Shown here piece by piece: positions 3,451 through 41,840 of a stretch of DNA of 64,000 nucleotides. The stretch's first letter is position 1. The number at the start of each line of letters is the position of its first letter. The stretch covers positions 18,662,001 through 18,726,000 of the forward strand of contig JAGIQG010000013.1 of NCBI GenBank assembly GCA_024679065.1. The letters run 5' to 3'. The notes beneath the pieces are model-generated. The model saw only the letters and a list, made by a program, of their open reading frames with translations, had not been told where the DNA came from and did not search any database. Both the position numbers and the translations under genes were made by a program. This DNA comes from Sphyrna mokarran (Eukaryota).

Positions 3451-3503
3451 AAGAACTAGAAGAAAACTATTGATTTTTTTTTTTGTCCTTGTGTATATTT
3501 CAG

Positions 3504-4045: not shown

Positions 4046-4880
4046 ATTAGCATTGAGCATTGATCCTGAGCATTAGCTTTGTAACTTCATTTTTTTAAAA
4101 AAATTAAATGACTTCGCTGCCCAATGTCCCTCTGCTACAGTTGTGTTCAGTCTCTTTTTAATTTCCTGCTCCCATGCCCACAACCTAGTGACTCTTTAAT
4201 GATCATCTGCAAACGTATATATAGAAGACAACTTCTCCATCCAATTTATTAGTATATATGAATCACTGGCAAATATTGATTGTTGCAACCTGCCAATCAG
4301 AATATTTTCTTTATGTTTATTCCATTTCCTACTTCCTAACCAATTGCTGATCCATGTGGCAGGATTGCCTTCAATTCTATGCACTTCCATTTTCATTAAT
4401 AATTTCATGTATTGAATCTTAGCAAATGAGTTCTGAAACACTATTACATAATATCTATAGACATTCCCTTGCCTTCAGTACTGGTGACTTCGAAAATAAT
4501 CAAGGTGACCAGACAAAATTAACTTTCCAAAATTCATGCTGACTCTCAACTTCACAAATAGTGATCAGTTATTCTGTTAATGATGGATTCCAGTAACTTC
4601 CCAAAATGTGAAATGTACTGTAACGTAAATTCCATAGTCACTTTGGTTGAGAGTCCAATCATTTTGTATCTTTAAAAGCCTAATTCATGTTTCCAGCTGA
4701 TGGATTAAAATTGTTATTTGGCATAAAGCCCATCTTCATGACAAGCCCAACAAAGATTGTGAAGTGTGGCCTACTGGTGAGGGAATAACCAAGTAGAAAT
4801 ATGGCAGGAGTTGTATACATCAAAATTATAATATCTTGTATGTTTTAAAGTGATGTTGAGTAACTTTTTTTTAATAAAAG

Positions 4881-4948
4881 GTCAAGCAGATCAGACTTCT
4901 GATAGTGAAATTTTGAAAGATGGAAAGTGCACTGAAAGTATATCCAAG
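4881..4948 (+). CDS. HJURP: HJURP-like internal exon (SQADQTSDSEILKDGKCTESISK), phase 1 to 0
   Basis: T-rich ...aaaag acceptor, gtacag donor, 68 nt, in frame with both neighbours. Confidence 0.7.
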
Positions 4949-5419
4949 GTACAGTGTGATATTTGTCATATAAAGATGTATAAACTGCTTTCAAATATCA
5001 GGCGGACCACGTGCATAATAACATCAGTGGTCCAAAGTAGATTTCAAGCATTGAAAAGTGAAGCAATTGACTAATCTTTCCCCTCTGCCTATGGCTGAAA
5101 TTCTCTATTATTATAAAACTTGGCTTCTCAAGCAATATATTAGATGTTATTTGAAGAATAAACAGCCAAGATATTGGGGAGAATCTCATAGCCTTTCAAT
5201 TAGTGCATGAGATCTACATCCAAGGCAACAAACAAAGTATCAGTTTAAAGTTTAATCCGAAAGATAACATTGCCAATAATGTAGGTGCCTCGCCATATAG
5301 ATTAAAATATCGACCCAATGAGTTCACAATATCCATACTCAACAAGACCTTGGTAACATTCAGACTTGGGCTGATATATAGTATAAATGTTATTTGCCAT
5401 AAAAGTGCCAGGCAATTAC

Positions 5420-6170
5420 CATTTCCAAAGAAAGAACCTAGCCATTTTCCTGGAGTGGCATTCCCATTGTTGAATCCCCACAATCAAGACCTTAGAGGTT
5501 CCCATTGACCAGAAACTGAACTGCACTAGCCATATAAGTACTGTGGTTACAAGAATGTCACAATCTGGGTATTATGCAGCTAGTAATTTGTCCACTGACT
5601 CCCCAAAGCCTGTGCACCATCTACAAGGCAGAAGTCAGGAGTATGATGGAATACTCTCCATTTGCCTGGATGAGGGCGGGTCCAACGACATTAAAGACGC
5701 TCAATACCACCCAGGGCTAAGAATTTCACTTAATTGACATCCCAACCATTTCTTTAAACGTACACTCCCTCCATTACTGATGCACAATGGCACAATCCAG
5801 AAGATACACTACAAGAACTCACCAAAGCACCTTCAATGGCACTTTTCAAACCTGCCCACTCTACCACCTAGAAGGACAAGGGGTAGCCAATGTATGGGGA
5901 CACCTGCACCTGCAAGTTCTCCTTCAAATCACATATCATCCTGATTCAGAACTATATTGCAGTTTATTCACTGATGCAGTATCAAAATCCTGGAACTCCT
6001 TCCACCTAACAACACTGTGAATGTGCTCAAACCAGGATTATAGCAGTTCAAAAATGTTGCTCTCTGCCACTTTCTTGTACAATTAAGGATGGCAGCAAAT
6101 GCTGGCATAGCCAGCGATATCACCTCTTCCTCTCCTGCCTCCTCATCCTGCAATAGAATAAAAAAACTTC
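5420..6170 (+). mobile_element. 3' part of a second CR1/L2-group LINE family
   Basis: atctacaaggcagaagtcaggagtatgatggaatactc (IYKAEVRSMMEY-like) and tail aattaaggatggcagcaaatgctggc; related copies at 22365-23880, 31600-32360, 56500-56780. Confidence 0.7.
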
Positions 6171-6696
6171 TGATTCAGAGGAGAATGATACCATGAAAGT
6201 GGGTGACACTTATTGATATTCCACTCATGTTCAAATTTGATAACAATCTTTATGTACCAGCTTTTATTCTACTGACATATAATGCAGTTGGCAAATAGAA
6301 ATGGACTAAGTGGATGCAAGGAGAAATTTTGTGCATTTGCCTGCTAGTTCAGTGAATAAATATAGTTTACTCTTGCAAAACAGACTAATAATTCCCAATT
6401 TTGATCAATGCTGGCTATACTTGGTAAAGATGGAACAATTAGGATTTTTTAGAATCGTATAACTTGCACATTTGTGTAATTTTAATGTTGACAGCTATTG
6501 TACAAATATTTGCCTAAACCAAAGCAGTATCTTGTGCAGCACTCCATCAAAATCTATCTATGTTTCTGCCATCGTTTTGCCGTGGCATTTTTGACTATGT
6601 TTGATGGAAATATTTTGAATCAGGGTGAAATTTTAGTCCTTTTGCATACTCCACAAGAATAACGTAATAAAATTGTCTTCTTTTTTAACCTACTAG

Positions 6697-6801
6697 TCAC
6701 AAACCAGCATCACTATGGGAGAAATGAATGTAGGAGATAAATATAAGGTAGATGTTGACATACTGACTACTGGCAATGGTAATCGTGGAAAGCAAGTCTT
6801 G
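6697..6801 (+). CDS. HJURP: HJURP-like internal exon (SQTSITMGEMNVGDKYKVDVDILTTGNGNRGKQVL), phase 0 to 0
   Basis: Polypyrimidine tract plus ctag acceptor, consensus gtgagt donor, 105 nt open. Confidence 0.75.
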
Positions 6802-7785
6802 GTGAGTATTGCATTTGCATGTATATTAAAATAACAGTGTTTACATGATTTGGGAAGTGATGGGCATTTTTGAAATTACTTATGCAAATAGAAAAGCTGA
6901 AAGTAACATTTAAAATTTGTTTACAAATCTACAGAAAATTGCCAATAAATCTGATTTAATTTAATGAATTGTCTCAACATTAGGATGTTTAATCTCACTA
7001 ATGCTGTGACAAAATCTTCAAACTTGATATTTGGCTTCAGAGATCACTAATGATGCATTCATATTTTATAACCCATTATGATCGTAACTATTTTCTCAGA
7101 ATTGTAGAACTCTACAACATACAGTCTATTAGAGCTCACTTTGTCTATGTTGCCCATTTTGAGAGTGTAATTGTGCCTTTAAAGCAGAGATCAAAAGATT
7201 GTTGATAAATTAGGGATGAAAGGTTATCAGGAGTAAGTGGGAGGTTACAATAGGATCAACCAGGATCTTATTGAATGGAGGAGCGGACTTAAGAGGCCAA
7301 GTGGCCAAGTCCTGGTTTACATGTTTGTATGAATAAAGGGTGCTGGAGGCTGATTCAATAGAGCAAAATTTGAGAAGAGAAAATGTTGCAGAAATAATAG
7401 CTAGTGGGACCTGATTTTCTTTTTGTAAAAGGCAGCACAGACTCAGCGGGCCTACTGGCCAGTCCTGTGGTATAGCATTCTATAGCCATGCTGCCATGGA
7501 AAGGGATCATTAAGAAATCTGTTCTGTTTTGTAAGCATGAAAATTTTAAGGGGAGAATTGCTGCATCTTATTTGCATATATCTTAGTAACTAGTTTTAAA
7601 ACAATATTGACAACGAGTCCACCACAGAAGTGTGTCAAGAGGATTATTTTACCAGGAGACACTTTTTGTGACTTATACTGTTCGGATAGCTGGATCAAGG
7701 AATTATTATTTGTTGATCGAATATGCAGTGTGGTGTGAGTGATTGAACGTTTTTTCTGTCTTAACCTTTGAATGTCTTTTTGAAG

Positions 7786-7876
7786 GTGGAATGTGTTGGG
7801 AGGACCAAAGATAAACCAATGATCATGTTTACCGATACATGGAAGACGGAAGTTGGATTGTCACATACAGATCCTG
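7786..7876 (+). CDS. HJURP: HJURP-like internal exon (VECVGRTKDKPMIMFTDTWKTEVGLSHTDP), phase 0 to 1
   Basis: ctttttgaag acceptor, gtacgg donor, 91 nt; phase matches the large exon. Confidence 0.7.
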
Positions 7877-8283
7877 GTACGGTTGTGTTGTAGTTGAATC
7901 AATGCTGTCTAAAATTCTGTGACTGCACAAGCTTTGGTTTTAATTAATCGTTTACATTGTAACGCATGCAGCTTAATCCTAAAATCTTTTAATGGGGGGA
8001 GAGGGCAATAAGTGCTGACCCAGCCAGCAATACTCATGCCCCGTAAAATTAATAAAAAAGAGAAGCAGTCAATCTAAAATCATCTACAGTTGAAATTTCT
8101 GGCCATTTTAAAGTACTATCAAATTATTAATGAAATTTAAATACTATTTGTGTAACTTAGCAGGTAACTCTCTTGTTTTGTCTGTGAAGATTTTTATATC
8201 TATGGCAGCTTCTTATCAATATTTGTTGGTTACTGATAGAGCCAAATGTTGCTTATGTGTGTGATTTCTTTATCTCTCACAAG

Positions 8284-9767
8284 ATCGCAACGATGACTTG
8301 CAGGCAACAATTTCTGGAGAATTAAATCATTCATCGAGACCTGAACGTGATGAAGATGACTCAAACTTCATTTCTTCTATATCCTATGATCAGTCTTTGG
8401 TGAAGCCACTTTGTGAACATGGTAGCAAAGAACTTTCTTTTACGCTCGGGTTTGAAAAAAATACAAGCAATGTTTTAGATTTGGCAGAAACAATATCCAC
8501 TTGTATCAGTGAAGATTCCAGAGAAAATCATGATGATACTTCATCTGGTTTAAGTGATACAACCCTTATCGATATCTACCCGAGTATGCTAGCATCAATG
8601 AGTAAATTGCTTGACCGTGGCTACAAGACGCAGGTTGCCTCAAGATTAATAAAACATTATCGACGTCTCCAGTTGAATGCATGTAAATCAAAACTAAATA
8701 TAACTCAAGATGGATTAAGAATGAAGGCCAAGATGGATGCCCAAATGTTAAAGAAGGTGGAGGGTAATCCTGTTATTGAATTAAAGGCATGTTCTGGAAT
8801 CAAATGTGTGAATGGAACAATTTCTTCTCTGAAGAGATACAGAACTGCAGAATCTAATCTTGACACATGTATGTCCATGCCTGCTGCTGAAAGTTCTTTG
8901 GCTGCACAGCAAACAAATCCAAAATTGTTTGAAATTGAAACTTCTGAGTTTAGAAATTCAGACAATGATGCAAATTACTCCCAGTCACAACTAAACCCTT
9001 CCAACCCAAAAAGTTCAGTACCAGTTACAAATTGCTGCAGCATGAAGAAAACTTTACTTCCTATAGTCATTTCTTTGAATGGACCATCTTTGCCCCAGCT
9101 GGATACTGTGACCAGTTTCAGATGTTTCCATACAAAACCTAATGTAGTAAAAGCACAATTGCCATGCTCAGAACTTGTTCTTAACCATTCACCGAAGAAA
9201 AAATTATCTCCACTGAACAATAATACAATGACTAAAGAGGATTCTGCAATAGCAAATTTCTGCAGATCACCATTTAGAATGTTTTTGTGCTCAAACAATG
9301 TTTCCCACACTGACCAAAGAAGTAGACGGAGGCATTCATTTTCCTCTACGAGTTCTGTTCCAACCATGTTCTCTTCTATAAGGAGCCCAATTAGCACTCG
9401 AGTAAAAGAAATGGATGCATTTGAATCCATATATAATAACTTGGTTCATAATTCATTCTCTCTTTCAACTTCTGTGAAGCTTCCCAATATATTGAATGTA
9501 AGTTCTGTCTCTGGTAGAACTATTACATCAGTGACATCTGTTCCAAACTCACCTTCCCATCAATCAAGGAAGCGAGCTGCTTGTATTGACCAGTTGAGAG
9601 AAACTTCGCGATTACCATTAAAGAGGTTCCGCTCCTTTCTGGTATCATCTAGTTCAAATCAAAGTAATCAGGAAATGGTGCTGCTGAATACTGTGTTAAA
9701 AGATCAGAATTACCACTCTGCACAAATGAGTCGCTTTTATTCTCCAAGGTGCCAGCGGTCCAGAGAG
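8284..9767 (+). CDS. HJURP: HJURP-like large exon (1484 nt, ~494 aa), Ser-rich, with middle-domain motif and one C-terminal-repeat-like motif
   Basis: ORF 8298-9779. SDTTLIDIYPSMLASMSKLL resembles human HJURP SDVTISDLYAGMLHSMSRLL as recalled; EMDAFESIYNNLV resembles the HJURP C-terminal repeat core. ctctcacaag acceptor, gag|gtgaga donor. Confidence 0.85.
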
Positions 9768-9824
9768 GTGAGATCCTAATTGTTTTTAAACTCACACTGC
9801 TTAAGTTTTTAAACTTAAATTTTA

Positions 9825-10096
9825 CTTATTAGCATCATGTAGGCTTACATTAATACTACTATGAAAATTCCCACACTCTGGCGCCTGTTCGGGTACATTG
9901 AGGGAGAATTTAGCATTGCCAGTGCACCTAACCAGCATGCCTTACAAACGTAGGAGAAAACTGAAGCAGCTGGAGAAAACCTTTGCATACACGGAGAGAA
10001 CGTGCAGACTCCACACAGACAGTGACCCAGACTGGGAATTGAACACTTTACCTGGTGCTGAGAGGCAGCTGTGCTAACCATTGAGCCACCATGCAC
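9825..10096 (-). mobile_element. tRNA-derived V-SINE (HE1-like), tail type A
   Basis: tRNA A/B-box head (tggttagcacagctgcc...gttcaattccc) and V-domain ctgtgtggagtctgcacgttctctccgtg. Confidence 0.85.
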
Positions 10097-10546
10097 TATG
10101 CATTAGTTCATACTAATGAGTGTTAGGATTTTAATAATAGCATGATGATGGATATTTGAAACATCCATACTGTGCTCAGATGGAGCATCAATAAAGAATT
10201 AACAGTGGGGTTATAGATTTTTGTTGTTACAACTTTGGGTTGTATCTAGAGTAGTTGGTTGATTATTTCATAGCTTCAGTTTTGTCTCATCTAATTAAGA
10301 GTAAAGCATCACAAATTGCTTTGGCCTACTATTGGGTTTTATTTCTTCCTGCAGTGTGTTGATACCATAATATTAAATATTCACTTAATAACAAAACTAG
10401 CAACTGTCAGTAATTAAGCCAAGTTTTGATGCTATTAAATCTAAGCTGATAATTAAGTTTTTTGCATTCAATTTTAATATTTCTGCTGCAGGGAGTTATA
10501 ATCTCTGATTGTAAAGAATGTTTACATCTGCTTTATTTTAGCAATG

Positions 10547-13190
10547 TTATAAAAACAAAGGAAATAGGTGCAAGAGTAGGCCCTTCGAGCCCGCACCATC
10601 GTTCAGTGTGATTATGGCTGATTTTGCACTTTCAGTATTCCTCTCCTGCTTTTTCTCCATACCCCTTGATCCCTTTAGCCACAAAGACCATATCCAACTC
10701 CCATTTGAATGTAATCTAGGAAACTGGCCCCACCAGTTTCTGTGGTAGAGAATTCCACAGGTCCACAACCCTGGGTGAAGAAGTTCTTCCTCAGTTCAGT
10801 CCTGAATGGCTTACTCCTTATTTTTAGACTATGATCCCTAGTTCTGGATTTTCCCAAAATCAGGAACATCCTTCCCGCATCTAGCCTGTCTAGTCCCATC
10901 GGAATTTTATGTTTCAATGAGGCGCCTTTCGTTCTTCTAAATTCCAGTGAGTACAAGCCCAGTCGATCGAGTCTTTTCATATTAGTCCTGCCATTCTGGG
11001 AATCAGTCTGGTGAACATTCGCTGGACTCTCTCACCAGTAAAAATGTCCTTTCTCAGATTAGGAGACCAGAACTGCACACAGTACTCGAGGTGTGACCTC
11101 ACAAGGGCCTGTATAACTGCAGCAAGACATCTGTACTCCTAAACTCAAATCCTCTTGCTATTAGTTTTCCTCAGCGCCTGCTGTATCTGTATCCTAATCT
11201 TCAGTGAGTGTTCCACCATGGCATCCAGATCATGTTTCACTTCCCCTTTTTCTAAACTAGCATTCAGATAATCTTCCTGTTTTTGCCACCCAACTGGATA
11301 GCCTCATATTTCTCCACGTTATATTGTAGTTGCCCATTTTGTCAGCCTGCCTAAGTCACTCTGCAACCTCTTAGCATCCTCCTCACAACACATAATGCCA
11401 CCCTGCTTAGTGTTGTCTGAAAACTTGGAGATATTGCATTCAATTTCTTTGTCCAAATCATTAATGTATATTTTGAATAGCTGGAGTCCCAGCACTGAAC
11501 CGTGTGATACACAATTAGTACTGCCTGGCACTCTGAAAAGGACCCATTTATTCCCATTCTGCTTCCTGTCTGCCAACTAGTTCTCTATCCACGTCACTGT
11601 TACCCCAATACTGTGATGTTTAATTTTGGTCACTAATCTCTTGTGTGGAACCATGTTGAAAGCCTTTGAAAATCCAGGTACACAGTGGTTCACCCTTGTC
11701 CATTCTACTGGTCACATCCTCAAAAAATTTCAGCAAATTTGCCAAGCACAGTTTCCTTTTAGTGAATCAATGCTGACTTGGACCTATACTTTCCAATGCT
11801 GAGTTATTACATCTTCAGTAACTGAGTCAAGTATTTTCCCTACCACCAATACCAAGTTAACTGATCTATAATTCTTTGTTTTTTCTCTCTCTCCTTTTTT
11901 TAAAAGTGTTACATTAGTTACTATCCAATCCATTGGATCTCTACCAGAATTTATAGAATGCTGGAAAATAATCACCAATGCGTCCACTATTTCTGGGACT
12001 AGATGTGGGAAGAATATTCCTGATTTTGGGAAGTCCGAAACTAGGGGTCACAGTCTAAAAATAAAAGGTAAGCCATTCAGGACTGAAATGAGGAAAAACT
12101 TTGTCACTCAACGTTATGAACCTGTGGAATTCTCTACCACAGAAAATTGTTGGGGCCAGTTTGCTAGATTGTGTTCAAATGGGAATTGGACATGGCTCTT
12201 GTGGCTAAAGGGATCAAGGGGTATGGAAAAAAAGCAGGAGAGGGATGCTGAAAGTGCATAATCAGCCACAATCACTATTTCTAATACTCTGGGATGCAAA
12301 GCATCAGACTCTGGAGACTTATCGGATTTAATCCCAATCCCTTTCCCCAGTACAATTTCCTGACTAAAAAGATTCGCTTTAGTTCCTCCTTCATGCTAGA
12401 CCTAGTCCCTAGTATTTCTGGAAGGTTATTATGAGGACAGATCAACAGTATTTGTTCAGCCATCTTTGTTGCCCATTATTATGAATTTACTGGAGGGGTA
12501 AGGGACCTACATTTGTCTTCCAGTTTTTTTCTCTTCACATGTTTATAGAACTTTTGCAGTCAGTTTTGATGTTCTCTGCAAGTTTACTCTTGTATTCTAT
12601 TTTCTCCTTCGGAATAGAACCCTTTGTCTTCCACTGCTGAATTTTAAATTTTTTTAATCCTCAGATTTGCTGATTTTTCTGGCCAATTTATAAGCCTTCT
12701 CTTTTGACTTTAATACTAATTTCCCTTGTTATTCATGGTTGAGCTATCTTCTTATGTCAGACAGATGTGTTCTTTAAGTATCTGCCATTGTTTATCCACT
12801 GTCAACCCCGCTAAAGTATGTGTTGCCAGTTTATCCTAGCCAATGCATGTCTCATACCATCAAAGTTAGCTTTCCTTAAATTTAGGACCCTAGTCTTAAA
12901 CTTAACTGTGTCACTGTCCACCTTAATGAAAAAATTCTACCATATTATGGTCACTCTTCCCCAAAGATTCTCCCACCGCAAGGTTGCTAATTAATCCCCT
13001 CTCATTACATAATACCTAGTCTAAAATGGTCTAATTTGTCCCTCGTCATGTTGGTCAAGGAAACCATCCCTTGTACATTCCAGGAAATCCTCCTCCATTG
13101 CATTGCTGCCAATTTGATAAGCCCAATCAAAATGCAGATTGAAGTTACCCATGATGATTGCTGTACCCTTGCAGCAATTCTTATGGATTC
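10547..13190 (-). mobile_element. CR1 LINE, degraded, with an internal inverted copy of its own 3' end (~11998-12275)
   Basis: ORF pieces RLDRLGLYSLEFRR, GSVLGLQLFKIYINDLD, KKGEREKTKNYRSVNL. Confidence 0.9.
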
Positions 13191-13454
13191 CTTTGTTTGT
13201 CTAGTTGAAGGGATGACGTGTTTTAAGTTGTATTCACTGTATTTCTTTTCACACTGCTCTATGAAGCTCACTGTATCCTAATTAAGCCTTAAGTAAAGAT
13301 CAAGTTGTGGTATTGTGCTGGAAAATGTTCACAATGTGCACAAATTGTTGCAACCTGAGTAGTCTTGCTTCCCTTAATCTTAAAACCCCTTGTACTTCAG
13401 TTGTATAGGAAAACACATTTCGTCATCAGTTTCCTCTTTGGCTGCATGTTTTAG

Positions 13455-13760
13455 CTGCACAGTGGCACAATGGTTAGTGCTGCTGCGTCACAGTGCCAGA
13501 GACGCAGATTCGATTCTAGCTTGGTCACTGTCTGTATGGAATTTGCACTTTCTCCCCGTGTATGCATGGGTTTCCTCAGGGTGCTCTGGTTTTCTCCATA
13601 ATCCAATATGTGCAGGCTAGGTTGATTGGCCGTGCTAAAATTGATTGTAGTGTCGGGGGATTAGCAGAGTAAATGTTACGGAAATAGGACCTGGGTGATC
13701 AGTACAGACTCGGTGGGCCAAATGGCCTCTTTCTGTATTGTAGTTATTTTATGATTCTAT
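13455..13760 (+). mobile_element. V-SINE (HE1-like), CR1-type tail B
   Basis: gtggcacaatggttagtgctgctg head, V-domain, tail gggccaaatggcctctttctgtattgtag...atgattctat. Confidence 0.85.
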
Positions 13761-14067
13761 GTGTTGTTTATAATAGATATAATAAAAGATCATGATTAAA
13801 GATTGCACATGATTAATTAATGATCTTTTGTTTGGACCAGCTAATAAATTTTATCCCTTTCAGAAAAATAGATTTTCCTAAATGTCAACTGTATGTTCAG
13901 TTTTGTTGGGTAGTTGAAGGATTAAAAATGCAGGAGTTTGGAGAGGTTGCGATGGGAATAACATGTGAACATGAGAATTAGGAGCAGGAGTAGATCTATA
14001 GTCATGTAAAATCTGGAGTTTATTCTCATCTCAATTGTATTACTCAAGTCAATTAAAAAGTGCAAAG

Positions 14068-14345
14068 TTAAAGTTTATTTATTACTCAGAAGTAGGCTTT
14101 ACATTAACACTGCAATGAAGTTACTGTAAAATTCCTGTAGTCACCACACTCTGGTGCCTGTTTGGATATACTAGGGGAAAATTTTAACATGGCCAATTCA
14201 CCTATCACATCTTTGGACAGTGGGAGAAAAAACACAGATACTGGAAAGACTAACAAACTCTACACAGAAGTGATCCAAGCTGGGAATTGAATCCAAGTCC
14301 CTGGCACTGTAAGGCGACTAACCATTGTGCCATCATGCTGCCCCT
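14068..14345 (-). mobile_element. V-SINE, tail type A
   Basis: aagtttatttatt...cattaacactgcaatgaagttactgt tail; tRNA head at the right end. Confidence 0.8.
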
Positions 14346-15815
14346 TTTTTTTTAAATACAACTTGGGAAATTTATCTAAAGGACTCTGCAGTTCCTGAGC
14401 AGATATAGATTACTCCCAGATACAAGTGTGTTGTTACAAAGTTTCACAGAATTTATTAAGTTAATTGCAATAGGTACAAAATTATAATACTCAATAAATC
14501 AGTGAATTAGTTCATTCATTCAAGAATAATGGCTCTCAACTTCTGGCTGATTGTGTTCTCTCTTGTCTGTTAAGTGAAGTCCATCTTCATGGGACAATTC
14601 TCCCAAAAATATTCTAAGTGTCAAGTTCGAGTGAAAACAGTAATAAATCATGCTGTTTTTTTCCTACCAACAGCACTTAATCAGTCCCTAATTGGTTAAA
14701 TCGTTTATAATCCATTGTTCTCTTAAAGGGTATGGTCATCTAGTGATATCACTTCTTGTTGTTTCCTGACTGGTCCTCTTGATGTCAGTTACTCATGGGA
14801 CCTGCCCGTTCATTATAGCTTTTTTAGTCGTTTCATTAAATATTACAATTTTCTTCCAAAATAGTAAGGGCCTTAGGATAGGTTTGATATCTTTTCATTT
14901 ACAATAGGAGAACCTGACATCTGAACACCAAACTCATCGGCCCATGTGTCTACTTTATCCAAAGATATTAGTATTTCATGTCCTGTATAACACTCATTAA
15001 AACACTTATCGGTATGTTTTGGTTTGAAAGGACACTCCTGTCATTGTATGTTTTTGTTGCATCTACCATGCTTTGTATAAGTTAATTAAAAATACAGAGT
15101 AATGCATAGCCTTATTGAAATTACAATTTATATAAAATGCAGGTAACATTGGTGCTTAAAAGTGATCGGTGTGCTAAAGTTAAGGCAGTAAGATTCATTT
15201 AAAAATATAACACGCCATATTTCTAAATAATAAAAGTCATGAAAACTACATAGCTACAAAGGCTAATTACAGAACTTATTTCTAAACGTATAGAATTGAA
15301 TATAAAAGAAAGTGGCTGCTTCTTTTACATCATCACAAATTAAACTGCATTACTTTTAAGGCATAAGGCTGAATATTTTAATATCTGTTCTTCTTTGCAC
15401 AATAGACTTTTAAATGTAAGGAATATACAGTGATAAATTTAATTGGTAGAGAGGTTGATGGTTTCAGACCAAAACTGTTCAATCCATCTTGCATCATTGG
15501 CTTGGGGTTATGTGGTTTCTCTCACTTATTAAATAGGAGTACGATGCTAATGGCCACAATTCTGCATCATATATTGGATTAATATACTTCGATTATTTGG
15601 ATTACTAATTGTAAATTGTCAACTTTAATATTTTCTACAGTGGAACTAACTGGATTGTACTTCAAATGAAATATCTCGTACTCAGTGGGCCAAATGGCTC
15701 CCACCTGCCTATTTTATGAATGTTACCAACTATAATGCTTATAACATTGGCGATATTTAATGCAATTCAGCCCATTTTGACTTCTGTTTATATTCTTTTC
15801 CTTAAATCTTTACAG

Positions 15816-15876
15816 AATATTACTTTGGACTCAGATATTAAATGGGAAGATAATGCGAGATTGTACTCCACTTATG
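15816..15876 (+). CDS. HJURP: HJURP-like exon (NITLDSDIKWEDNARLYSTY), phase 0 to 1
   Basis: Strong polypyrimidine tract plus tacag acceptor, gtatgt donor, 61 nt, in frame. Confidence 0.72.
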
Positions 15877-16819
15877 GTATGTATTAAAATATATCACCTA
15901 GCTATTTGTTAGTTACAGCCCAACTAATGAAATTGCTTTGCACTTCTTTGAACCCTTGGTTGAGGATGTTTTGAAAACAGATGGTGACTCAATATTTCAG
16001 AAATTTTGCATTGAAAAAGTGTTCCATCAAGTGGAAACAGCTTTGATTTGATTTATTATTGTCACATGTGTTAGTATACAGTGAAAAATATTGTTTCTTG
16101 TGTGCTATACAGGTAAAACATACCATTCATAAAGAAGAAAAGGAAAGAGTGCAGAAGATAGTGTTGCTGTCACAGCTAAGATGTAGAGAAAGATCAACTT
16201 AGTGCGAGGTAGTTCCATTCAGAAATCTGACAGCAGGGAAGAAGCTGTTCTTGAGTTGTTTGGTATGTAACCTTAGACTTTAGTATCTTTTTCCCAATGG
16301 TAGAAGGTGGAAGAGAGTATGTCCAAGGTGCATACGGTCATTATGCTGGTTGCTTTGCCGAGGCAGTGGGGGAAGTGTAGGCAGAATCAACAGATGGGAG
16401 GCTTGTTTGCATGATGGATTGGGCTGTGTTCACGACCTTTTGCAGTTTCTTATGGTTTTGGGCAGTGCAGAAGCTACACCAAGCTGTGACACAACCAAAA
16501 AGAATGCTGTGTATGGTGCATCTATAAAACTTGTTGAGAGTTGTAGCAGACATGCCAGATTTCCTTAGTCTTCTGAGAAAATAGAGGCAGTGGTGGGTTT
16601 TCTTAATTATAGTGTTGGCATGGGGGGATCAGGACAGGTTGTTGGTCATCTGGGCACCTAAAAACTTGAAGCTCTCGACCCTTTTCTACTTCATCCCCGC
16701 TGATGTAGACATGGGACATGTTCTCCTCTACTCGTCCTGAAGTTGATGACAATCTCCTTCATTTTGTTGACCACCAGTTCTATCTCATTCAGTACTCTGT
16801 TTCATCATTGTTTGAGGTC

Positions 16820-17357
16820 TGTGTTCAATTCTGGTCACCACACTACCAGAGAGTGTCATAGCGTGGTGAGGCTTTAGAAAGAGTATGGAAAAGATTTAGC
16901 AGGATGTTGCCTGGTACGGAGGACATTAGTTACGAGGAGAGGTTGGAGAAACCTGTTTTTTTCTCACTGGTTGAGCAGAGACCTGATAGAAGCCTACAAG
17001 ATTGTGAGGCATGGATAGTCAGAAGCTTTTTCCCAGGATGGAAGAGTCAATTACTAGGGGGCATAGATTTGAGATGTGAAGGACAAGGTTTAAAGGAGAT
17101 GTATGAGGCAGATTTTTTACACAGAGGGTGATGAGTGCTTGGAACTCATTGCTAATAATGGAAGTGGATATAGTTGTGACTTTTAAGGGGCATCTTGACA
17201 AGTACATGAGTGGGATGGGAATACAAGGATATGGTCCCCAGAAGGGTAGAAGGGTTTTAATTAAGTTGGGCAGCATGGTTGCTGCAGGTTTTTTTGGGGG
17301 GGAGGGGGTGTGGTGTCGAAAGGCCTGTTCCTGTGCTGTAATTTTCTTTGTTCTTTG
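16820..17357 (+). mobile_element. CR1 3' fragment nested in the Rex1/Babar element
   Basis: MLPGTEDISYEERLEK; tail aggcctgttcctgtgctgtaattttctttgttctttg. Confidence 0.85.
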
Positions 17358-18952
17358 TCTGTCCCACTACGGTGTGTTGTCAGCAAACTTGAAAATCGAA
17401 TTGGAGAGGATTTTGGCTACACAGCAATAGGTGTATAAGGAGTATAGTAGGGGATTAAGAACACAGCCTTGTGGGGCACCGGTGTTGAAGATGATCATGG
17501 AGGAGGTATTGTTGCCTATCCTAACTGATTGTGGTCTATGAGTTAGGAAGTTCAGGATCTAGTTGCAGAGGGAGGAGCCAAAGCTCAGGCTACAGAGTTT
17601 GGAGATTAGCTTCACAGCAATAATGGTGTTGAAGGTTGAGATGTAGTTAATAAATAGGAGTTTAAAATAAGTGTCTTTATTATCTAGGTATTCCAGGATT
17701 CAGTGCAGGTCCAGGGTGGTGGCATCTGCTGTGGACCTGTTGTGGCAATAGGCAAACTATTTATGGATCCAGGTAGTCCAGGAGGCTGGAATTGATTTGT
17801 GCCATGACTAGTCTTTTGAAGCATTTCATAATGATTGATTTCAGAGCCACCGGATGATAGTTTTGAGGCACGTTGCTTGATTTTTCTTGGGTACTCGGAT
17901 GATGGCCGTCTTCTTTAAAGCAGATAGGGACTTAAGATTGTTGTAATAAAGAGAGGTTGAAGATGTCTGCGAATACCTCCACCAGCTGATCCGCAGGATC
18001 TGAGTGCTCATCTGAATACCCCATTTGGGCCAGTTGCTTTCCGTAGGTTGACCTTTGATAAAGCTGCTCTGACATCTGCAATGGTGACCCCAGATACAGA
18101 TTCTTCCAGGGTGGAGGGTATGCTCTCACTGAACTCTTGCTCAAAATGGGCATTGACTGCATTGGCTCATCAGAGAGAGGTGAGTTGGAACCGGCGATTT
18201 TACATGCCTTCATCCCGTAGCGTGTTATGTCTTGCAGATTTTGCCATAGTCGGCGGGGGTCTGTATGGCTAATCTGAGACTCTAGCTTGATCTGATACTG
18301 TCTTTTGGCATTTTTGGGTCTCAAATTATATCTGGCTTTCTTGTATATCAGGGTCACCTGACTTGAATGCCTCAAATGTAGACTTCAGTAAGCAGTGGAT
18401 ATCCCTATTCATCCATGGTTTCCAGTTGGAGAACACGTGTATTTACTCTTCTACACATTTACTAATGAAGTCAGCTATTATAGTGGCATACTCATTCAGA
18501 CCGGTTGCAGAGGTTTTAAATATTGGCCAGTTCACTGACTGGTTGCAGGGTTTTTAAATACTGATTTTCAGATCAAAATTGCTTTGATGGATTCTCCTGT
18601 TTCAGTTTTTGCTTGTAAGCCAGGAGCAGGAGCACAGCCCTGTGGTCTGATTTGCCAAAATGTGGGTGGGTGATAAAGCAGTAGGCATGTTTGATATTTG
18701 TGTAGCAGTGGTCTGGGGTACTGGGTCTCCAGTAGAACAGGAGACATGTTGGTAGTATGCTCTTGAGCTTGGTCTGACTTAAGTCCCCTGCCATAATAAA
18801 CAAGGCTTTAGAATGTTTTGTCTCAAGGCTATTCATAGTTGTGTATATTTCATCCAGCATGATCTTCACATCGGTATGGGGTGAGATATAAAGTGCCATC
18901 AGGATAATGGAGGTGAACTTTTGCAGAAGGTAGTAGGGCGGCATTTTAGCTT

Positions 18953-19210
18953 TTTTAAGTTTATTGATTAGTAACAAGTAACGAAGTTACTGTGAAATTC
19001 CTGTATTGCCACAGTCCGTAACTGTTCAAGTCAAGACACCTAACCAGCATGTCTTTCAGAATGTGGGAGGAAGCCAAAACATCTGGAAGAAACCCATGCA
19101 GACTTGGGAGAATATGCAAACTCCTCACAGACTGTGACCCAAGCTGGGAATCGAACTTGGGTCTTTGGTGCTGTGAGGCAGCAGTGCTAATCACTGTGCC
19201 ACCATGCTGC
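18953..19210 (-). mobile_element. V-SINE nested in the Rex1/Babar element
   Basis: tRNA head, V-domain and type A tail. Confidence 0.8.
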
Positions 19211-20661
19211 AAAAACTTGCTCATGTTGGTATGTCTAGGCACCACGAGGTGTTTATTAAGATGCAGATCCTAGCCTTGTCTGAGGCTGTTGTATGGTCCA
19301 TTCAATGGATTTGAGAAACCCTCTGGTTGTAAGGCGCAGTCCAGTGAAGCAGGAGTGAACCATGTCTCCATGAAACAGTACACAGCTGTTCTCTTTGGAA
19401 AATGAATCTGGCTCTGTGTTCGTCTTGTTTGTTTCCCAGAGATTGGATATTTGCAAGCAGTAAGCTGGGGAGGGGAGCCTTGGGACTGCATTGTTTCACT
19501 CTCACCTGCAGGCCTGCATGTTTTCCGTGCTTCCTGGAATGTCTGCTTTTTTTCAAGCTTGGGAGACACTGAGAGTGGTTTGCAGTGTTAAAGGTATAGT
19601 TGTGTCCAATGAAGTTCTTCTCTCTGGTTGGTGTATGGATGAAAGATTTGTTGGCTCGCTTACAGTTCCTGCGTCAGTAGATGGTCCATGCAGTCGGGTG
19701 TTCCAGATCACTGTCAGGCTGTGGTTTGGCTTCGCCAGTTGGTGAATATCCAGGCCACACTCTGGTGTGGATGGGTCGAAGACTGGTAAGTGGATGAAGT
19801 CCCTGGATTCACGGTCATGGATGAGCCAGTGGTTGGGCCCATGTGTTGAGGTCCCCGGGTCACTGCTGGGTTGAGCTCTTCCTTTAGAGGTCGGAGGATC
19901 TCTCGACCTGTAAGTAAATTTAAAAGGGCAGCTTTAGTGATTGTTAGGAATTAATTTTTAGCAGGGTGGGGCAACTGTAGAAGGGGGATTGAAGGGAGTG
20001 CTTGTTGTAGCTCTCTGGGTCAAAGAGATAGGGGACGGAGAGGAGGGCTCTAAGCTCGCTTGGAGGTCTGGTCGTTGGAGACCAGCGGAGTGGAGGTCCC
20101 AGCTCCCATGGTGTTTTCCTGGGTGCTAAAAGTCTTCCGAGTGTAGACCCAGGCTTCTCGGGCATTTTCCTGGTCTCTGAAAGCTGGTGTGGTGTAATCC
20201 CCACCTCTGGGACTGCATGCCAGCTGCTGTTCATGTGGGTGGCCGGTCAATTTCAGGTCAGCCTGATTGGGTGTCTGCAGGGTCCTAAGGATCACCACTT
20301 CTGTTAAACATTGTTTTAAAGCATTGTTGGAGAGTTCAAAAGAGTTGGAATGAAATTTTAGAGGTATAGAACGAGAGTAAAAGAGACAACTTGAAGCTAT
20401 GCTAGGCGTAGCTTGCAAGAAGTCACCTCACTCTGGTACAATCTTGAATTTTTTTTGGCATGGAAAAATTGTGTAAGACTTAATAATATGTGCAATCCCA
20501 TATTGATCTTAAACATAACAGCCAGATTTGACCACCCGTCACGGTATTCCATATTCATAGTTCTGCTGTAGTAAAATAAATGCTGTTGATTAAATTTTAT
20601 GTTTCTGCAGTTTTGTCAGATGGAAATTAAACAATAATAAGTCTAATTTTCTTATTTTTAG

Positions 20662-20734
20662 GAACTCTCTTGCCTGTCGTAAATAGTTCAGGAAATACTG
20701 AGAGTTTATGTTTATCACCCAGATTTCGGAACAG
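20662..20734 (+). CDS. HJURP: HJURP-like exon (GTLLPVVNSSGNTESLCLSPRFRNR), phase 1 to 2
   Basis: ttattttttag-type acceptor, cag|gtatgt donor, 73 nt, in frame. Confidence 0.72.
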
Positions 20735-21517
20735 GTATGTGGTGAAGTATTTAGTTTATTGTTCAATTAAACTATTAAATAATCTATTATGTAGGTTTTC
20801 AATATTTTGATTTTGAAAGAAATGGTCTTGTAGTTCTATGTTTTAGAGTATGTAGCATCACTGGATGTTCATTTTTTTTTACAACGTTATTGTGAAAACT
20901 TCATTTTGCCACCAGATGCTAAATTTTTAAACAAAAATGTCTCCTCCTCGTTAACTGTTTCCATCTCATTGCCTTTATTCATTTGCTCTCTTCGTGGAAT
21001 AGCTATTAATTGTATATTTATAGTTCAAAGTTCTGTACAGTAAGTTTCTCAGCTACGCATTTTCAAGTTCAATTTCAGTAAAGAACCTGTATAATTTGTG
21101 TTAGTCTTCTAAGGAATATATAGAGTGTGAAGATATAAAGTAGGCGTTGTGGCTTTAAAATACCCCAGGCAAGAATTTCATAAGATATTTTTCCATTCCT
21201 TTCCACCTTTTTGAATTATGAAATGGGGAGCGGCACACTGGACTATAGTGCATGCAATTAATTTCATATCTTCGTTCTAATACAATATACTCAGTATAAA
21301 GCTGAGGCAATTTTAAGTTCTCCAATAATTTGAATAAATCTGTTAATAAAATGAGATTTTAATACTTTTAAAAATTGGTTGAATTAAGAGTAGAACATGT
21401 TTGTGTGGATTTGATGGACCCGAAGGGCCTCTTCTGCGCTCTGTGATTCTGTGAAAGAAGAAGCAATTACTAGCTGGAATGTTGTAATTAAATGACATTT
21501 TTACTTTCTCTTAACAG

Positions 21518-21563
21518 AGTGTCAAGAAAACTGGACTATACCAAACTCAACACCCCAGTCTGA
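21518..21563 (+). CDS. HJURP: HJURP-like last coding exon (VSRKLDYTKLNTPV*)
   Basis: ctttctcttaacag acceptor in phase 2, TGA at 21561-21563, followed by an AT-rich repeat-free 3'UTR. Confidence 0.72.
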
Positions 21564-23952: not shown

Positions 23953-24878
23953 CGCTGTTTGTAATTTTTATAAATGATCTGGATGAAGGTATTGAAGGAT
24001 GGATTAGTAAATTTGCGGATGACACCCAAGTCGGAGGAGTGGTAGATAGTGAAGAGGGGTGTTATAGTTTGCAGAGAGGTGGCAAATGGAGTTTAATGCA
24101 GAAAAGTGTGAGGTAATTCACTTTGGCAGGAATAACAAATGTGTAGAGTATAGGGCTAATGGTAGTACTCTTAATAGTGTTGAAGAACAGAGGGATCTTG
24201 GTGTATATGTGCATAGATCCCTGAAAGTTGGCAATCAAGTCGATAAGGTTGTTAAGAAGGCATACGGAGTCCTAGCTTTTATTGGTAGGGGGATTGAATT
24301 TCGGAGCCGCAACGTCATGTTGCAACTGTACAAAACTCTCGTGCGGCCGCACTTGGAGTATTGTGTGCAGTTCTGGTCCCCGCATTATAAGAAAGATGTG
24401 GAGGCATTGGAGAGGGTACAGAGGAGGTTTACCAGAATGTTGCCTGGTATGGAAGGCAGGTCTTATGAAGAGAGGCTGAAGGTTTTGAGGTTGTTTTCGT
24501 TAGAAAGAAGGCGGCTAAGAGGAGACCTTATTGAAACACATAAGATGATTAGAGGTTTAGATAGGGTGGACAGTGATAGCCTTTTTCCTAGGATGGAGAA
24601 AGCTAGCATGAGGGGACATAGCTTTAAATTAAGGGGTGGTAGTTATAGGACAGATGTCAGAGGTAGGTTCTTTACCCAGAGGGTGGTAAGGGTATGAATG
24701 CCCTGCCTGCTGCAATTGTAGATGCGTCAAGTTTGGTGGCATTTAAGAGGTTAGTAGATAAGTTTATGGACGAAAAGGGAATGGTTTAGGTTAGAGGGTC
24801 ATTGCTTTTTCCTAATTGGTCGGCGCAACATCGAAGGCTGAAGGGCCTGTTCTGTGCTGTAATGTTCAATGTTCTATG
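23953..24878 (+). mobile_element. Young CR1 3' fragment
   Basis: 203-aa ORF 24086-24697 (LYKTLVRPHLEYCVQFWSPH), nearly identical in protein to 62640-63392; atgttc-type tail. Confidence 0.95.
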
Positions 24879-25843
24879 ATCAGTTTGTGAGAACTGGAAA
24901 ATGTTACAGCTGAACATTAAAAAGCAAAGGGAAGAACAAAGATATATTATGAATAATTTTTATTCTTGAAGGGAAATACAGATAGTTTAAAAGGAAATCT
25001 TATGGAAGGAGTAAAGTAATGCGCACTACCCCAGCAAGCTGTTAAGAAAATGTAGGTTAACACAGTCATTATCCCAAACACAAACCAACCATTTTACTCC
25101 TATATCCAAAAACACAATGTAAATTTAACCCACACTGTTCATAAGATGATGGATATCACAATTAAGATCAGAGGTCCAGCTGTAAAGCCAGAAGACTGAA
25201 ACTACCTGCTTAAAAAGAGAACTAGAGTTGAATTTCATTGGAACTGTAAAAATCCAAAGAAGGAGACTCAGTTGGACAGATAATTCATGTGGCAAATAAC
25301 AAGAAATTTAGGATTGTGAATATGGCTACAAAATGGTAGCTCTGCATTTTGTCTCCAACAAAAAACGAATGCGTACCTGCCTAGTATATTGGATTTGCTG
25401 CTTTTATTGCTCATTTGAAATTATTGAAGTGCACTGATTCAAATATAGTTAATATAAGCTGCACCAAATGCTGGAGATCCATACTACACATAACATTGGC
25501 TTGGAAGTTTCTCTACTTGATGGGTTTAAACAATCATCCTTTCCAACTTCTAAATTGTAGACCATGCCATGTTGTTAAATGCAGGTATACATTGTGTTGA
25601 ATATATTCCTGTACACTGTCAACCTGCTTGGAAGAAATTAATTTAAATTATTATGGGCACGATAACACTGAGTCTATTAGATTTATTTAATGAGTTGCAC
25701 GTATACGAGAGTATTTAATGCAGTAAAGCTAGACTATCCCAAGTCATGAAATAAAAATTGCTCTGAAGTTAAATATATTCAAATAGAATGCAATATCAAA
25801 GTAACTTCTATACCACATCTTCGCATCAAGCTAAGTACTATCA

Positions 25844-26458
25844 GAAGCAATTAAAAGTGTGCACCAAATACAGCTATGCCAGCTGAAGTGCTAACAGCAA
25901 TATTAAAACGGGGAGACAATGGTATTGTCACATGATTAGTAATTCAGGGATCCAAAGCAAGATCTGGGGACCCAGGTTCAAATCTCACTGCAGCAGATAG
26001 TGAAATTTGAATTCAATAAAAAAACTGGAATTAAAATTCTAATGATGATCATGAAACCATTGCCAATTGTTGGAAAAACCCATCTGGTTGATTAATGGCC
26101 TTTAGGGAAGGAAATTTGACATTCTTACCCAGTCTGATTCAATTAAAACAATTAATTGAAGCAGTTAAAATTGTGCACCAAATAAAGCTTTGCCAGCTGA
26201 AATGTTCACACCAATATTAAAGTGGGGAGACAATGGCATTGTGGTATTGTCACATGATTAGTAACCCAGGGATCCAAAGCAAGATCTGGAGACCCAAGTT
26301 CAAATCTTGCAGATAGTGAAATTTGAATTCAATAAAAAAAAATGGAATTAAAATTCTAATGATGACCATGAAACCATTGCCAATTGTTGGAAAAACCCAT
26401 CTGGTTGATTAATGTCCTTTAGGGAAGGAAATTTGACATTCTTACCTGGTCTGATTCA
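25844..26458 (+). repeat. Tandem duplication with 314-bp period, covering unique flank plus the 5' part of a tRNA-derived SINE
   Basis: Copies begin gaagcaattaaaagtgtgcacc (25844) and gaagcagttaaaattgtgcacc (26158) and align to ...tctgattca. The second SINE continues to ~26580. Confidence 0.9.
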
Positions 26459-29229: not shown

Positions 29230-29750
29230 GTCAACAATAATTGCATATATTTACATAGCAACTTTATTATGATGAGAGTTCCCAAGGCACTTCATGGGGT
29301 TATAAAACAAAATATGACAGTGCTACATCAGATAATAGAACAAATGACCAAAGGTTTGATCAAAGGGAGTTATTAATGAGTGTCTTAAAAGAGAGGGTGA
29401 TGGAGGAAACTTCAGATCTTAAAAGCTGAAAGATGAACGTTCACCTGCATTCAAGCGATTTAAAGTAGAGTGCTTAAGAGGCTAGAATTAGAGGAGCGCA
29501 GATTGAAGGACTGCAATGTTGTAGGAAATGACAGAGGTAGGGAATCCATGGATTTGAGCTCAAACATGAGAATTTTAAAACTCAGGCACTGCTTAACTAA
29601 TAGGTAGTGTAGATCAACAAACATTGGAGTGAAGAATAATTAGGCTTTGGTGTGGATCAGGGCACGGACTGCAGGGTTTTGGTTAACCTTGAGTTTAAAG
29701 TGGGAAGGACCTGAGAGGCTGGCCAGGAGTGCCTTAAGATACAAGAGTTT
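29230..29750 (-). mobile_element. L2-like LINE 3' remnant
   Basis: atttacatagc...cccaaggcacttca...atgaccaaaggtttgatcaaag resembles L2 3' ends; very degraded. Confidence 0.5.
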
Positions 29751-29789
29751 TGAACCACATTACTTTTTTAATGATTTACTTTGCCTTTT

Positions 29790-30069
29790 CTCGGCCTTTT
29801 GGCTAAGATCAAGTGAAGTATGCTGTGCTTGCTTGAAGTCATTTGATTACATTTCAGCTTCATTTGAAGCAATCTTTAAAAGCAACATCTCAGCCTTTTG
29901 GCTAAGATGCAAATAAGATCAAGCCTTGGAGAAGGAGCGATGCCTACTCCAATCAGTTTGGATCATGTAGGTCAAGCCCAAGACAGAACGTGAGAGCCCT
30001 GTCTTGTCAACTTGTTGAGACTCTGAATTGGACTTCGTTGGATTGAATTGGAATAAAAACAAAGAAAAT
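29790..30069 (+). mobile_element. U2-snRNA-headed retroposon (SINEU-like) with A-rich tail and 11-bp TSD
   Basis: 29788-29821 matches U2 nt 6-39 at 33/34; second U2-like tract at 29888-29908; tail aataaaaacaaagaaaa; ctttgcctttt repeated at 29779-29789 and 30070-30080. Confidence 0.75.
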
Positions 30070-30664
30070 CTTTGCCTTTTTAGGCTTATTTTTAAACCAA
30101 CAGCATTAGCAAATAGTGTAGCTATAGCAGATGACTCAAACTGTAAAATGACTGGATTTCAAACCTTCAAACAATTTGATAATTCCACATTCCAAACATC
30201 AATTCTTATTTAATCATGTTGTCACATTTACCATCCTGCTTTTTCTGTATGAATTGTCCAATTCAAATGGATGTATACAGGCAGCAATGATGCAATTCTA
30301 CCATGTGTCTTCAATGAGGAATAACATGGAGATCTCTGACATCTGAATGCACTTGAACATTCAGACTGGTTAGAACCTCTTTAACTGCAAAAGCAATAAG
30401 TGAATTATGGAAAATATGAATATTGAGGCATGCTTATTTTTCACTGCTCATGAATTCAAAATGGAGTTTCTCATCTGGGCTTTTTTTTGAAATGATAGAA
30501 AATTAAAACTAAAAGTAGTTTGTTCTTCCCAATTTCTTGTATAAATGGTGCACAAACCAACTTTCAATGCAAACTATTTCACAATAAACGGGGATACATT
30601 TCTCCAGATGTTGTATTCCTTCAAGATAAATCTTATCAACACTGATACCAGCATAAGCTAAGAG

Positions 30665-39240: not shown

Positions 39241-41840
39241 ATTACAGAAAGTCAAAAGGGGTTTAGGGAATGTAGGGGTAAAATCAAAAAGCAAATTAGG
39301 AAAGTAAAGAGTGGTATGAAAAAATATTGGTGAGTAAAGTCAAGAAGAACCCAGAGTTGTTTTATCAATGCATTACATGGGCAGCATAGTGGCACAGTTG
39401 AAAGCAATGCTATCTCACAGCTCCAGGGAGTTGAGTTCAATTTGGATGACTTTGTCGAGTTTGCATATTTTCCCCCTGTCTTCATGGGTTTCCTCTGGGT
39501 ACTCCGGTTTCCTCCCAGAGTCCTAAGATGTGTGGCATTACGGGGAAGAGGTGGGGGCTAGGGCCTGGGTAATATGCTATGTCAGGAAGTAGGTACAGAC
39601 TCAATATATTCAATGGCCTCTTCCGTACTCATGATGTAAAGATGCCGGCGTTGGATTGGAGTGGTAAGAACTCAGTAAGAATTCTTACTCTTCCGTACTG
39701 TCAGGATTCTATGATTAAGAGTAAGAGGATAACCAAGGAAGGAGCAGGGCCTATAAAAGATGAAAAAATAACCTGTGTGTAGAGGCAGAAGTTGTCTTGG
39801 ACATATAAGTTGGACAGCAGGGTGGCACAATGGTTTGCACTGCTGCCTCACAGCGCCAAGGACACGGGTTCGATTCCCAGTTTGGGTTACTATCTGTGTG
39901 GAGTTTGCACGTTCTCCTTGTGTCTGCGTGGGTTTTCTCCAGGTGCTCTGGTTTCCTCCCACCGTCTGAAAGACATGCTGGTTAGGTGCATTGACCCGAA
40001 CAGGCTCCAGAGTGTGGCAACAAGGGGAATTTCACAGTGACTTCATTGTAGTGTTTATGTAGGCCTTACATGTGACTAATACATTAACTTTAGCTGTGTG
40101 GATATTGATAAATATCTTGAATCTGTGTTCACAAAAGTGGGCCGATGCAGACATTGTAGTGGAGGAGGTATACGGGGTATTGGATGTGATGAACATAGGG
40201 AGTGAAGCAATATTAAGGAGATGAGCTTCTAATAGCTGGAATTCTCTGGTCCAAGACCCTGACCAGACCATTAATATCTTCCTGCAGTCTACAGCTTCCC
40301 TCCTATTAACCATGCGGCCAATTTTTGTGTCATCTGCAAACTTTATGCCTCCTACATTTAATCCAATTGATCAGAATATTCCACAGAAAATGGGGACCTA
40401 GTACTGAGTTCTGTGGAGGCCCAATGGGAACAATCTTCTAGTCACAAAACACTTGTCAATCATTGCCCTTTATTTCCTGAGCCAAGCTTGATGGGTTTTA
40501 ACTTTTTCTACCAGTCTGCCATCTGGGGCTTTGCTAAACTCCATGTAAATCTTACCAACTGCACTACCTTCATCAATCTTTTTTATTATCTCCTCAATAA
40601 ATTCAATCGTTAATCAGATACAATCTTCCCTTAACAAATCCTTGTTGACTGTTCTTGATTACTCCATGCCTTTTGAAGTGGCAGTTTATCCTGTCTCAGA
40701 ATTCAGATTCCAAAAATTTGCCTACTGAGATTAGGCTGATTGGTCTGAACTTACTCAGTCTATGACTCAATTGTTTATTAAACAAAAATAAAATGTTAGG
40801 AGTCCTCCAGTCATCTGGCACAATGCCTGTACCCAATTAATTATAGTCAGAGCATCTACTGTTTCTTTCCTGGTTTTTTTTAACAGCCTGGGGCACAGTT
40901 AATCAGACACATCGGGCAAGATCCTCCAGCCTATCAGCTGTGTGTTTCCTGCCGGGGAGGGGAGGAGGCAGGTTATTTGTTAGTGGCGGGATTCTCCGGG
41001 CCCACCACTGTCAATGGGAATTCCATTGACATCACCCCACACCAATGGGAAATCTGGGGCTGCGCTGTGGTGGCTGCCAAAGTGAGAGAATTCCAGCTAT
41101 TAGAAGCTAACCTCCTTAATACAGCTTCACTCCCTATGTTCATCACATCCAATACCCTACATACCTCCTCCACTACAATGTCTGCATTGGCTCACTTTTG
41201 TGAACACAGATTCAAGATATTTATCAATATCCACACAGCTCAAGTTAATGTATTAGTCACACATAAGGCCGACATAAACACTGCAATGAAGTCACTGTGA
41301 AATTCCCCTTGTTGCCACACTCTGGAGCCTGTTCGGGTCAATGCACCTAACCAGCATGTCTTTCAGACTGTGGGAAGAAACCAGAGCACCCAGATAAAAC
41401 CCACGCAGACACAAGGAGAACGTGCAAACTCCACACAGATAGTGACCCAAACTGGGAATCAAACCTGCATCCTTGGCACTGTGAGGCAGCAGTGCAAACT
41501 ACTGTGCCACCCTTACATTGTCCAAGACAACAAAAAGATGGCAAATAGAATTCAACAGGGATAAATTGGGGCATAGATTTAAAGAGGCAGGAGACTGAGA
41601 GGGAATGTGAGGAAAAGCTTTTTCACTCAAAGACTGATAGGAGTCTGAAGCTCACAGCCTGAAAGGGTGGTTGAGGTACGGACCCTCATAATATTTAAGA
41701 AGTATCCAGATGTGCATTTGCCATGTCAAGCATTCAAGGCTGAGCCAAGTACTGGAAAATGGGATTAGAATAATTAAACGGTTTGTCTTTGTCTGATGTA
41801 GACACAATGGGCCGCAGGGCTTTCTTTATGCTGTATACCT
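39240..41840 (+). mobile_element. Rearranged CR1 with nested V-SINEs; internal inversion 40248-41531 and duplicated arm
   Basis: CR1 motifs read + on the flanks and - in 40248-40905; inverted arms at 39791-40247 and 41085-41531. Confidence 0.75.

Follow-up and report, generated by a model that had tools for sequence, protein, structure and literature searches.

Retroposons headed by small nuclear RNA (SINEU) are described from crocodilians. According to the available text of the original description, SINEU-1 has recurrent additions of U2 5' sequence, partial duplications inside its snRNA pieces and heads that begin inside U2 rather than at nt 1 (Kojima, 2015, PMC4494074). Its 3' body has no known LINE partner and ends in a poly(A) tail, target duplications are about 10 bp, and Tx1 elements are named for its mobilisation (PMC4494074). 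T runs in SINEU argue against transcription by RNA polymerase III, and the same text leaves open the mode of SINEU transcription, given the lack of an internal promoter, and the reason for the stacking of U1 and U2 pieces (PMC4494074). The 2015 study found no SINEU outside crocodilians, as far as its available text goes (PMC4494074). A 2017 review, in the part available, places SINEU in crocodilians; its entries for cartilaginous fishes are L2, CR1 and SINEs (PMC5381603). The shark SINEs in the accessible part of PMC5499810 are tRNA-headed, and on snRNA heads the accessible passages of PMC7245038 and PMC5786205 refer to the 2015 paper alone. No shark snRNA-headed SINE was found in the full-text literature, a coverage that excludes most subscription papers, Repbase Reports and the Repbase and Dfam catalogues.

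U2 is also tied to the autonomous elements Keno and Utopia, downstream of which U2 resumes at nt 39 (PMC4640811 and PMC6136364, available text). Their 5' boundaries are variable, and Utopia of reptiles duplicates 20 bp, according to the accessible part of the former source (PMC4640811).

The window, a 64-kb stretch of shark DNA analysed here as a whole, contains a 280-bp insertion (29790-30069) between exact 11-bp direct repeats. Its parts follow in the order U2 piece, spacer, U2 piece with a partial duplication, body and tail. Judged by anatomy, the insertion probably belongs to a ground-shark family of non-autonomous retroposons similar to SINEU-1. Such a family probably arose independently and is likely copied by a LINE of the Tx1/L1 group; we give this reading a probability of roughly 0.55. 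An earlier note on this DNA had drawn attention to the locus, and all of the features that it listed were recovered at their positions.

Structure of the insertion and its U2-derived tracts

The insertion and its flanking repeats consist of the following parts.

29779..29789, + strand: 11-bp direct repeat, 5' copy, likely target-site duplication (exact; chance 17/1500 anchors)
29788..29830, + strand: U2-derived tract 1, model nt 6-47 (Rfam RF00004 alignment, E 7.7e-7)
29831..29887, + strand: spacer of 57 nt, origin unassigned, containing a 5-bp hairpin and rich in A at its end (low-confidence columns only in the RF00004 alignment)
29888..29923, + strand: U2-derived tract 2, consisting of nt 7-27, five more bases and nt 22-31 repeated (self-comparison, 20/21 and 10/10)
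29917..29925, + strand: B-box-like match (pol III consensus) where tract 2 meets the body (possibly fortuitous; one of 30 window matches)
29924..30051, + strand: body outside the U2 tracts; hairpins predicted at 29926-29952 and at 29979-30006 (no U2 or significant Rfam match; folding)
30052..30069, + strand: AATAAA, then an interrupted A-rich tail (14 A in 30050-30069)
30070..30080, + strand: 11-bp direct repeat, 3' copy, resembling U2 nt 8-18 (exact; 9/11 to tract 2)

The U2 model of Rfam (RF00004) matches 29783-29898 with an E value of 7.7e-7 and 41.8 bits, below its gathering score of 46, and at gathering level Rfam has no hit anywhere in the 64-kb window. The head differs from the printed RF00004 consensus at one of the 34 positions of model nt 6-39 (33/34 agree), as expected from the claim that the element starts with the 5' end of U2, and this substitution falls in the branch-pairing hexamer, where a change had been reported. 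U2 nt 6-7 are at the same time the last two bases of the 5' direct repeat. Clear similarity had been said to end at about nt 37-38; it instead continues beyond a single base inserted after model nt 39 and runs to nt 47 (7/8 further positions).

The second U2-like tract, also proposed earlier, is present. Positions 29888-29908 repeat 29789-29809 at 20/21, and 29914-29923 are identical to 29804-29813 (10/10), a partial duplication in which nt 22-31 occur again. Tract 2 ends at U2 nt 31, and both tracts lack U2 nt 1-5. In both of them an extra G appears to follow an AT relative to the U2 consensus (29822 and 29909). Between the tracts, the spacer has 9 A among its last 20 nt, and no other match to 29831-29887 was found within the 64-kb window.

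The body gave two Rfam hits, neither significant (E 3 and 8), and no U2 match. Seven hits were obtained with the tail region, none of them significant (E 1.7-9.8); one weak and likewise non-significant alignment places the A-rich stretch 30025-30069 (+) on nt 1-49 of the U6 model (10.6 bits, E 2.3-3). A possible likeness of the 3' junction to the U5 loop was absent from the Rfam hits of the tail region and was dropped. The element is short (280 bp) and non-coding, the longest stop-free frames across the body having 59 and 46 codons.

Small hairpins are present without making the element unusually stable. The one noted earlier, at 29979-30006, does fold (z -2.88, reached by 2/200 shuffles, in a hand-picked 39-nt window), but the body (z -0.68) and the complete element (z -1.50) show no unusual stability. 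Three hand-picked windows with small hairpins had z values between -2.3 and -3.0, and a fourth had -0.55.

Insertion site and proposed mechanism

Target-primed retroposition leaves a direct repeat around a tailed insertion. The exact 11-bp flanking repeat that had been claimed is present (29779-29789 and 30070-30080, 11/11); its 5' copy adjoins the U2 head, and immediately before its 3' copy stands a 20-mer in which 14 bases are A, an A content reached by 0.07% of the 20-mers of the window. This 20-mer contains the claimed A-rich tail, which opens with AATAAA. An exact bracket of at least 11 nt was found around random anchors in 17 of 1500 draws (~1%) under loose rules. Since a head, a body, a tail and an exact repeat occur together, target-primed retroposition, an established part of non-LTR biology, is the clear reading, and a retroposed insertion with a U2-derived head, as proposed earlier, fits such a product. 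The AATAAA/A-rich 3' end of an RNA would have been reverse-transcribed at a staggered nick, with duplication of 11 bp of target.

The cut consensus of L1 is 5'-TTTT/A, according to the available text of PMC4476161. Here the repeat starts with a C/T-rich stretch on the sense strand, so that the primer end could not have paired with poly(A), unlike the L1 consensus. The nick was thus probably not made with the T-rich preference of L1, and a sequence-preferring endonuclease of the Tx1 type is the better guess; this repeat start, at one insertion site, is suggestive of Tx1 mobilisation. Against this, the sequence of the 3' repeat on the minus strand begins with an A run after a T, which corresponds to an L1-like nick on the opposite strand. 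An element oriented on the minus strand was rejected, as it would begin with a T-rich run and end in U2 sequence in antisense; the tail shares the + strand with both U2 tracts.

Transcription of the element is the next part of the model. The A-box and B-box motifs used for matching were what we take to be the pol III consensus. The B-box-like match at 29917 is one of 30 in the window on both strands, the A-B spacing in the element is 18 or 117 nt as against 44-45 nt in 6 of 14 window pairs, and a run of four T lies inside the element at 29896. An internal pol III promoter is unlikely on this sequence evidence. A classical pol III SINE was rejected on the T run, the A-B spacing and the lack of any tRNA, 5S or 7SL match in Rfam. 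Master copies would instead be transcribed by read-through from an upstream pol II promoter, with no internal promoter. Read-through from the U2 promoter itself, as the earlier note had it, is inapplicable to the 280-bp copy, which lacks U2 nt 1-5 and adjoins unrelated DNA. The copy is likely inert.

If the element follows the pattern of SINEU-1, its two U2 pieces may have been stacked over several generations through 5' additions and a partial duplication. The target site offers a hint of how this could come about. The duplicated target agrees with U2 nt 8-18, as represented by tract 2, at 9 of 11 positions, for which the chance expectation is about 0.03-1%; this comparison was devised post hoc, concerns one site and pairs two pyrimidine-rich motifs. 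A 9/11 agreement with tract 2 in register occurs in 36 of the 127,340 11-mers of the window, the same likeness in any register in 116/20,000 draws, and an equal local score including the downstream flank in 181/20,000 draws, the denominators of the draws including a few that were skipped inside the element. The inner and outer 3' junctions are also alike, each having an A-rich run, AT and then the motif (13/16). Taken from the sequence, the U2 nt 8-18 likeness hints at a U2-like target other than the Keno/Utopia site, one that would be open to self-insertion.

A bolder scenario, which we regard as improbable, is that sharks independently evolved an snRNA-headed retroposon whose U2 head is its own target: a Tx1-type endonuclease would nick before motifs resembling U2 from nt 8 and duplicate 11 bp, and copies would enter each other's heads. 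Were this true, head stacking would be explained without repeated template switching. A bias towards U2 nt 8-18, if it holds in other copies, would add to the known target sites in U2 and account for head stacking in a simple way.

Genomic setting, copy number and competing explanations

The surroundings of the insertion are those of a gene-bearing, repeat-rich shark region. A long frame at 8283-9776, which corresponds to a large exon at 8271-9767 (+), has 16 relatives, and all 14 of the named ones are sharks or rays, in support of a shark host. The best is from Mustelus asterias, a triakid carcharhiniform, at 89% identity, and the next reaches 68%. Exons of this gene match across 3501-21560 on the + strand. 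An N-terminal Scm3 domain passes the Pfam cut-off in two of three scanned relatives, the shark relatives being annotated as 'uncharacterized', and the gene presumably encodes the CENP-A chaperone HJURP. The insertion lies about 8.2 kb downstream of its last matched exon.

The window is rich in a repeat of roughly 270 bp and in LINE remnants. In translation the left flank (29520-29759, -) looks, by eye, like the C-terminal end of a reverse transcriptase of the L2 type in a decayed state; it had no Pfam hit. At 39811-40250 and 41085-41513, an abundant tRNA-type SINE with about 160 nt of shared extra sequence forms a 429-bp inverted pair (93.7% identity, ~0.8 kb apart). A 300-bp repeat is duplicated head-to-tail at 25844-26141 and 26158-26458 (88.6% identical). 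Young LINE 3' fragments, presumably CR1-like, lie at 23954-24881 (+) and 62550-63551 (-); they are 89% identical over 960 bp, and one has a 255-codon open frame.

Copy number bears directly on whether the insertion belongs to a family. Neither a second copy nor a partner LINE 3' end was found within the 64-kb window. A metagenome scan with one 18-nt body motif returned 10 loci, none of which (0/10) extended beyond 24 aligned nt, as expected by chance; such a scan is insensitive for a vertebrate non-coding repeat. Translated-body searches covered two of the six frames. The plus frame (40 aa) gave no candidate among proteins of 71-2000 aa, again an insensitive search for a non-coding repeat. The minus frame (49 aa) gave one hit among 1.84 billion proteins (P0017, E 5.7e-6), which was rejected as chance: the match covers a 61-residue repeat, short stretches of which are 37-43% identical, and its score is the sum over four repeats. 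These searches lend the family reading no support. A word search of sequencing runs with 29480-30380 listed 24 rows from 13 studies. In 23 rows 0.04-0.15 of the 91 words were present, which is no evidence on copies, an empty site or habitat; the remaining row contains 0.89 of them and may be the source sample, thus not independent support. No RNA runs were listed among the 24 rows.

The family reading is preferred because three junctions (U2/spacer, spacer/U2 and U2/body) and a duplication are hard to produce in one round and easier over generations, and this preference is an argument rather than a measurement. A one-off chimeric retrocopy is an unlikely rival. A LINE reverse transcriptase would have begun on the tail of its own or another RNA and switched to U2 RNA more than once, and the product would never have propagated. 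Chimeras of snRNA and LINE with target duplications are a known class that is not confined to L1, according to the available parts of two sources (PMC4476161; bioRxiv 10.1101/2025.02.02.635956), and the single copy seen in the 64-kb window is in keeping with such an origin, which would nevertheless need three switches and a duplication in one event. Double template switches are uncommon: in the accessible text of PMC2104539, chimeras comprise 1 tripartite case versus 33 bipartite ones. The known chimeras are moreover mostly of U6, and the human U2/L1 case was inverted by twin priming (PMC4476161, available text), whereas both U2 pieces here are in sense with the tail. A twin-primed U2/L1 chimera was rejected, since it requires an inverted snRNA piece. 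The earlier argument that a simple U2 pseudogene would lack such a body is right in that the insertion is not a simple pseudogene, but template-switch chimeric snRNA retrocopies also carry a non-U2 body, as the accessible text of PMC4476161 describes. Should the copy be unique, it would be an ordinary though elaborate chimeric retrocopy.

Other explanations assign the parts to different events. Two sequential insertions, which we consider rather improbable, would first place a U2-headed element (29889-30069) at a motif similar to U2 nt 8-18; a short retroposon would later have entered its head, where the 11-mer was duplicated again (29790-29800 and 29889-29899). The outer repeat matches tract 2 at 9/11, the inner and outer 3' junctions are both A-rich and end in AT before the motif (13/16), and the available text of PMC4494074 describes SINEU-3 inserted in tandem around a duplication. 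This test is again post hoc with two pyrimidine-rich motifs, the A-rich inner end is modest (9 A of 20), and the inner unit would need its own head of U2 nt 19-47, seamlessly joined. It is quite improbable that the insertion is a deleted, non-autonomous Keno or Utopia derivative whose master insertion lies within a U2 gene and is transcribed along with it from the U2 promoter; the head would then represent the 5' flank of that master insertion. Given the variable 5' boundaries reported in the accessible part of PMC4640811, a head reaching nt 47 could be such a flank plus a 9-bp duplication; the duplication is instead 11 bp and closer to nt 8-18 than to nt 39-50, tract 2 ends at nt 31, and neither tract has nt 1-5. 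Least probable, and highly implausible, is decay of a U2 pseudogene fragment that also underwent a local duplication and has its bracket and tail by chance. The sub-threshold Rfam score and the ~1% frequency of an 11-nt bracket among anchors agree with it, but the boundaries of repeat, tail and head fall together exactly, and a head that is nearly unchanged beside sequence with no U2 likeness is not expected of decay alone.

Comparison with known U2-associated elements

Group IV chimeric snRNA/LINE retrocopies resemble the element in having an snRNA piece 5' of other sequence, a tail and one target duplication, as given in the available text of Doucet et al. (2015, PMC4476161). They are mostly U6 chimeras with one junction, and their U2 case is inverted, while the shark element has two sense U2 pieces and three junctions (PMC4476161).

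Like the element studied here, the non-LTR elements Keno (Tx1 clade) and Utopia (RLE type) are associated with the 5' part of U2. They are autonomous and several kb long, with U2 from nt 39 on their 3' side, whereas the shark element has neither such an ORF nor a U2 3' flank, and its target resembles nt 8-18. Compared by eye on the RF00004 consensus, its flank agrees with U2 nt 39-50 at 5-6/11, so that U2 from nt 39, or a look-alike of it, does not form the 3' flank (9/11 with nt 8-18). The connection drawn earlier to the Keno/Utopia site is weakly supported at best, as the U2 match runs to nt 47 and the repeat fits nt 8-18 better than nt 39-50.

SINEU-3 of crocodilians also has the 5' 32 nt of U2 as its head and a unique 3' end. 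The second piece of SINEU-3 is the middle 83 nt of U2, while that of the shark element repeats the 5' end and its body has no U2 match, the comparison being with the available text of the SINEU description.

The likeness to SINEU pointed out in the earlier note holds best for SINEU-1, and a U2-derived 5' head, a 3' A tail and a non-coding length under about 500 bp are all present. A shark family, if real, would mean that snRNA-headed retroposons arise repeatedly, and it would offer a second system for the questions of SINEU transcription and stacking. Compared by description rather than by sequence, with the accessible SINEU-1 text as reference, the element differs from SINEU-1 in its shark host, in having no U1 piece and in having no recognised Mariner-N4 flank. 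Its anatomy parallels that of SINEU-1, and it may work in the same way: in that text SINEU-1 likewise is shorter than 500 bp, with stacked U2 heads that need not include nt 1, a partial duplication, a non-snRNA 3' body, an A tail and T runs in the head, and its target duplications of about 10 bp compare with 11 bp in the shark element.
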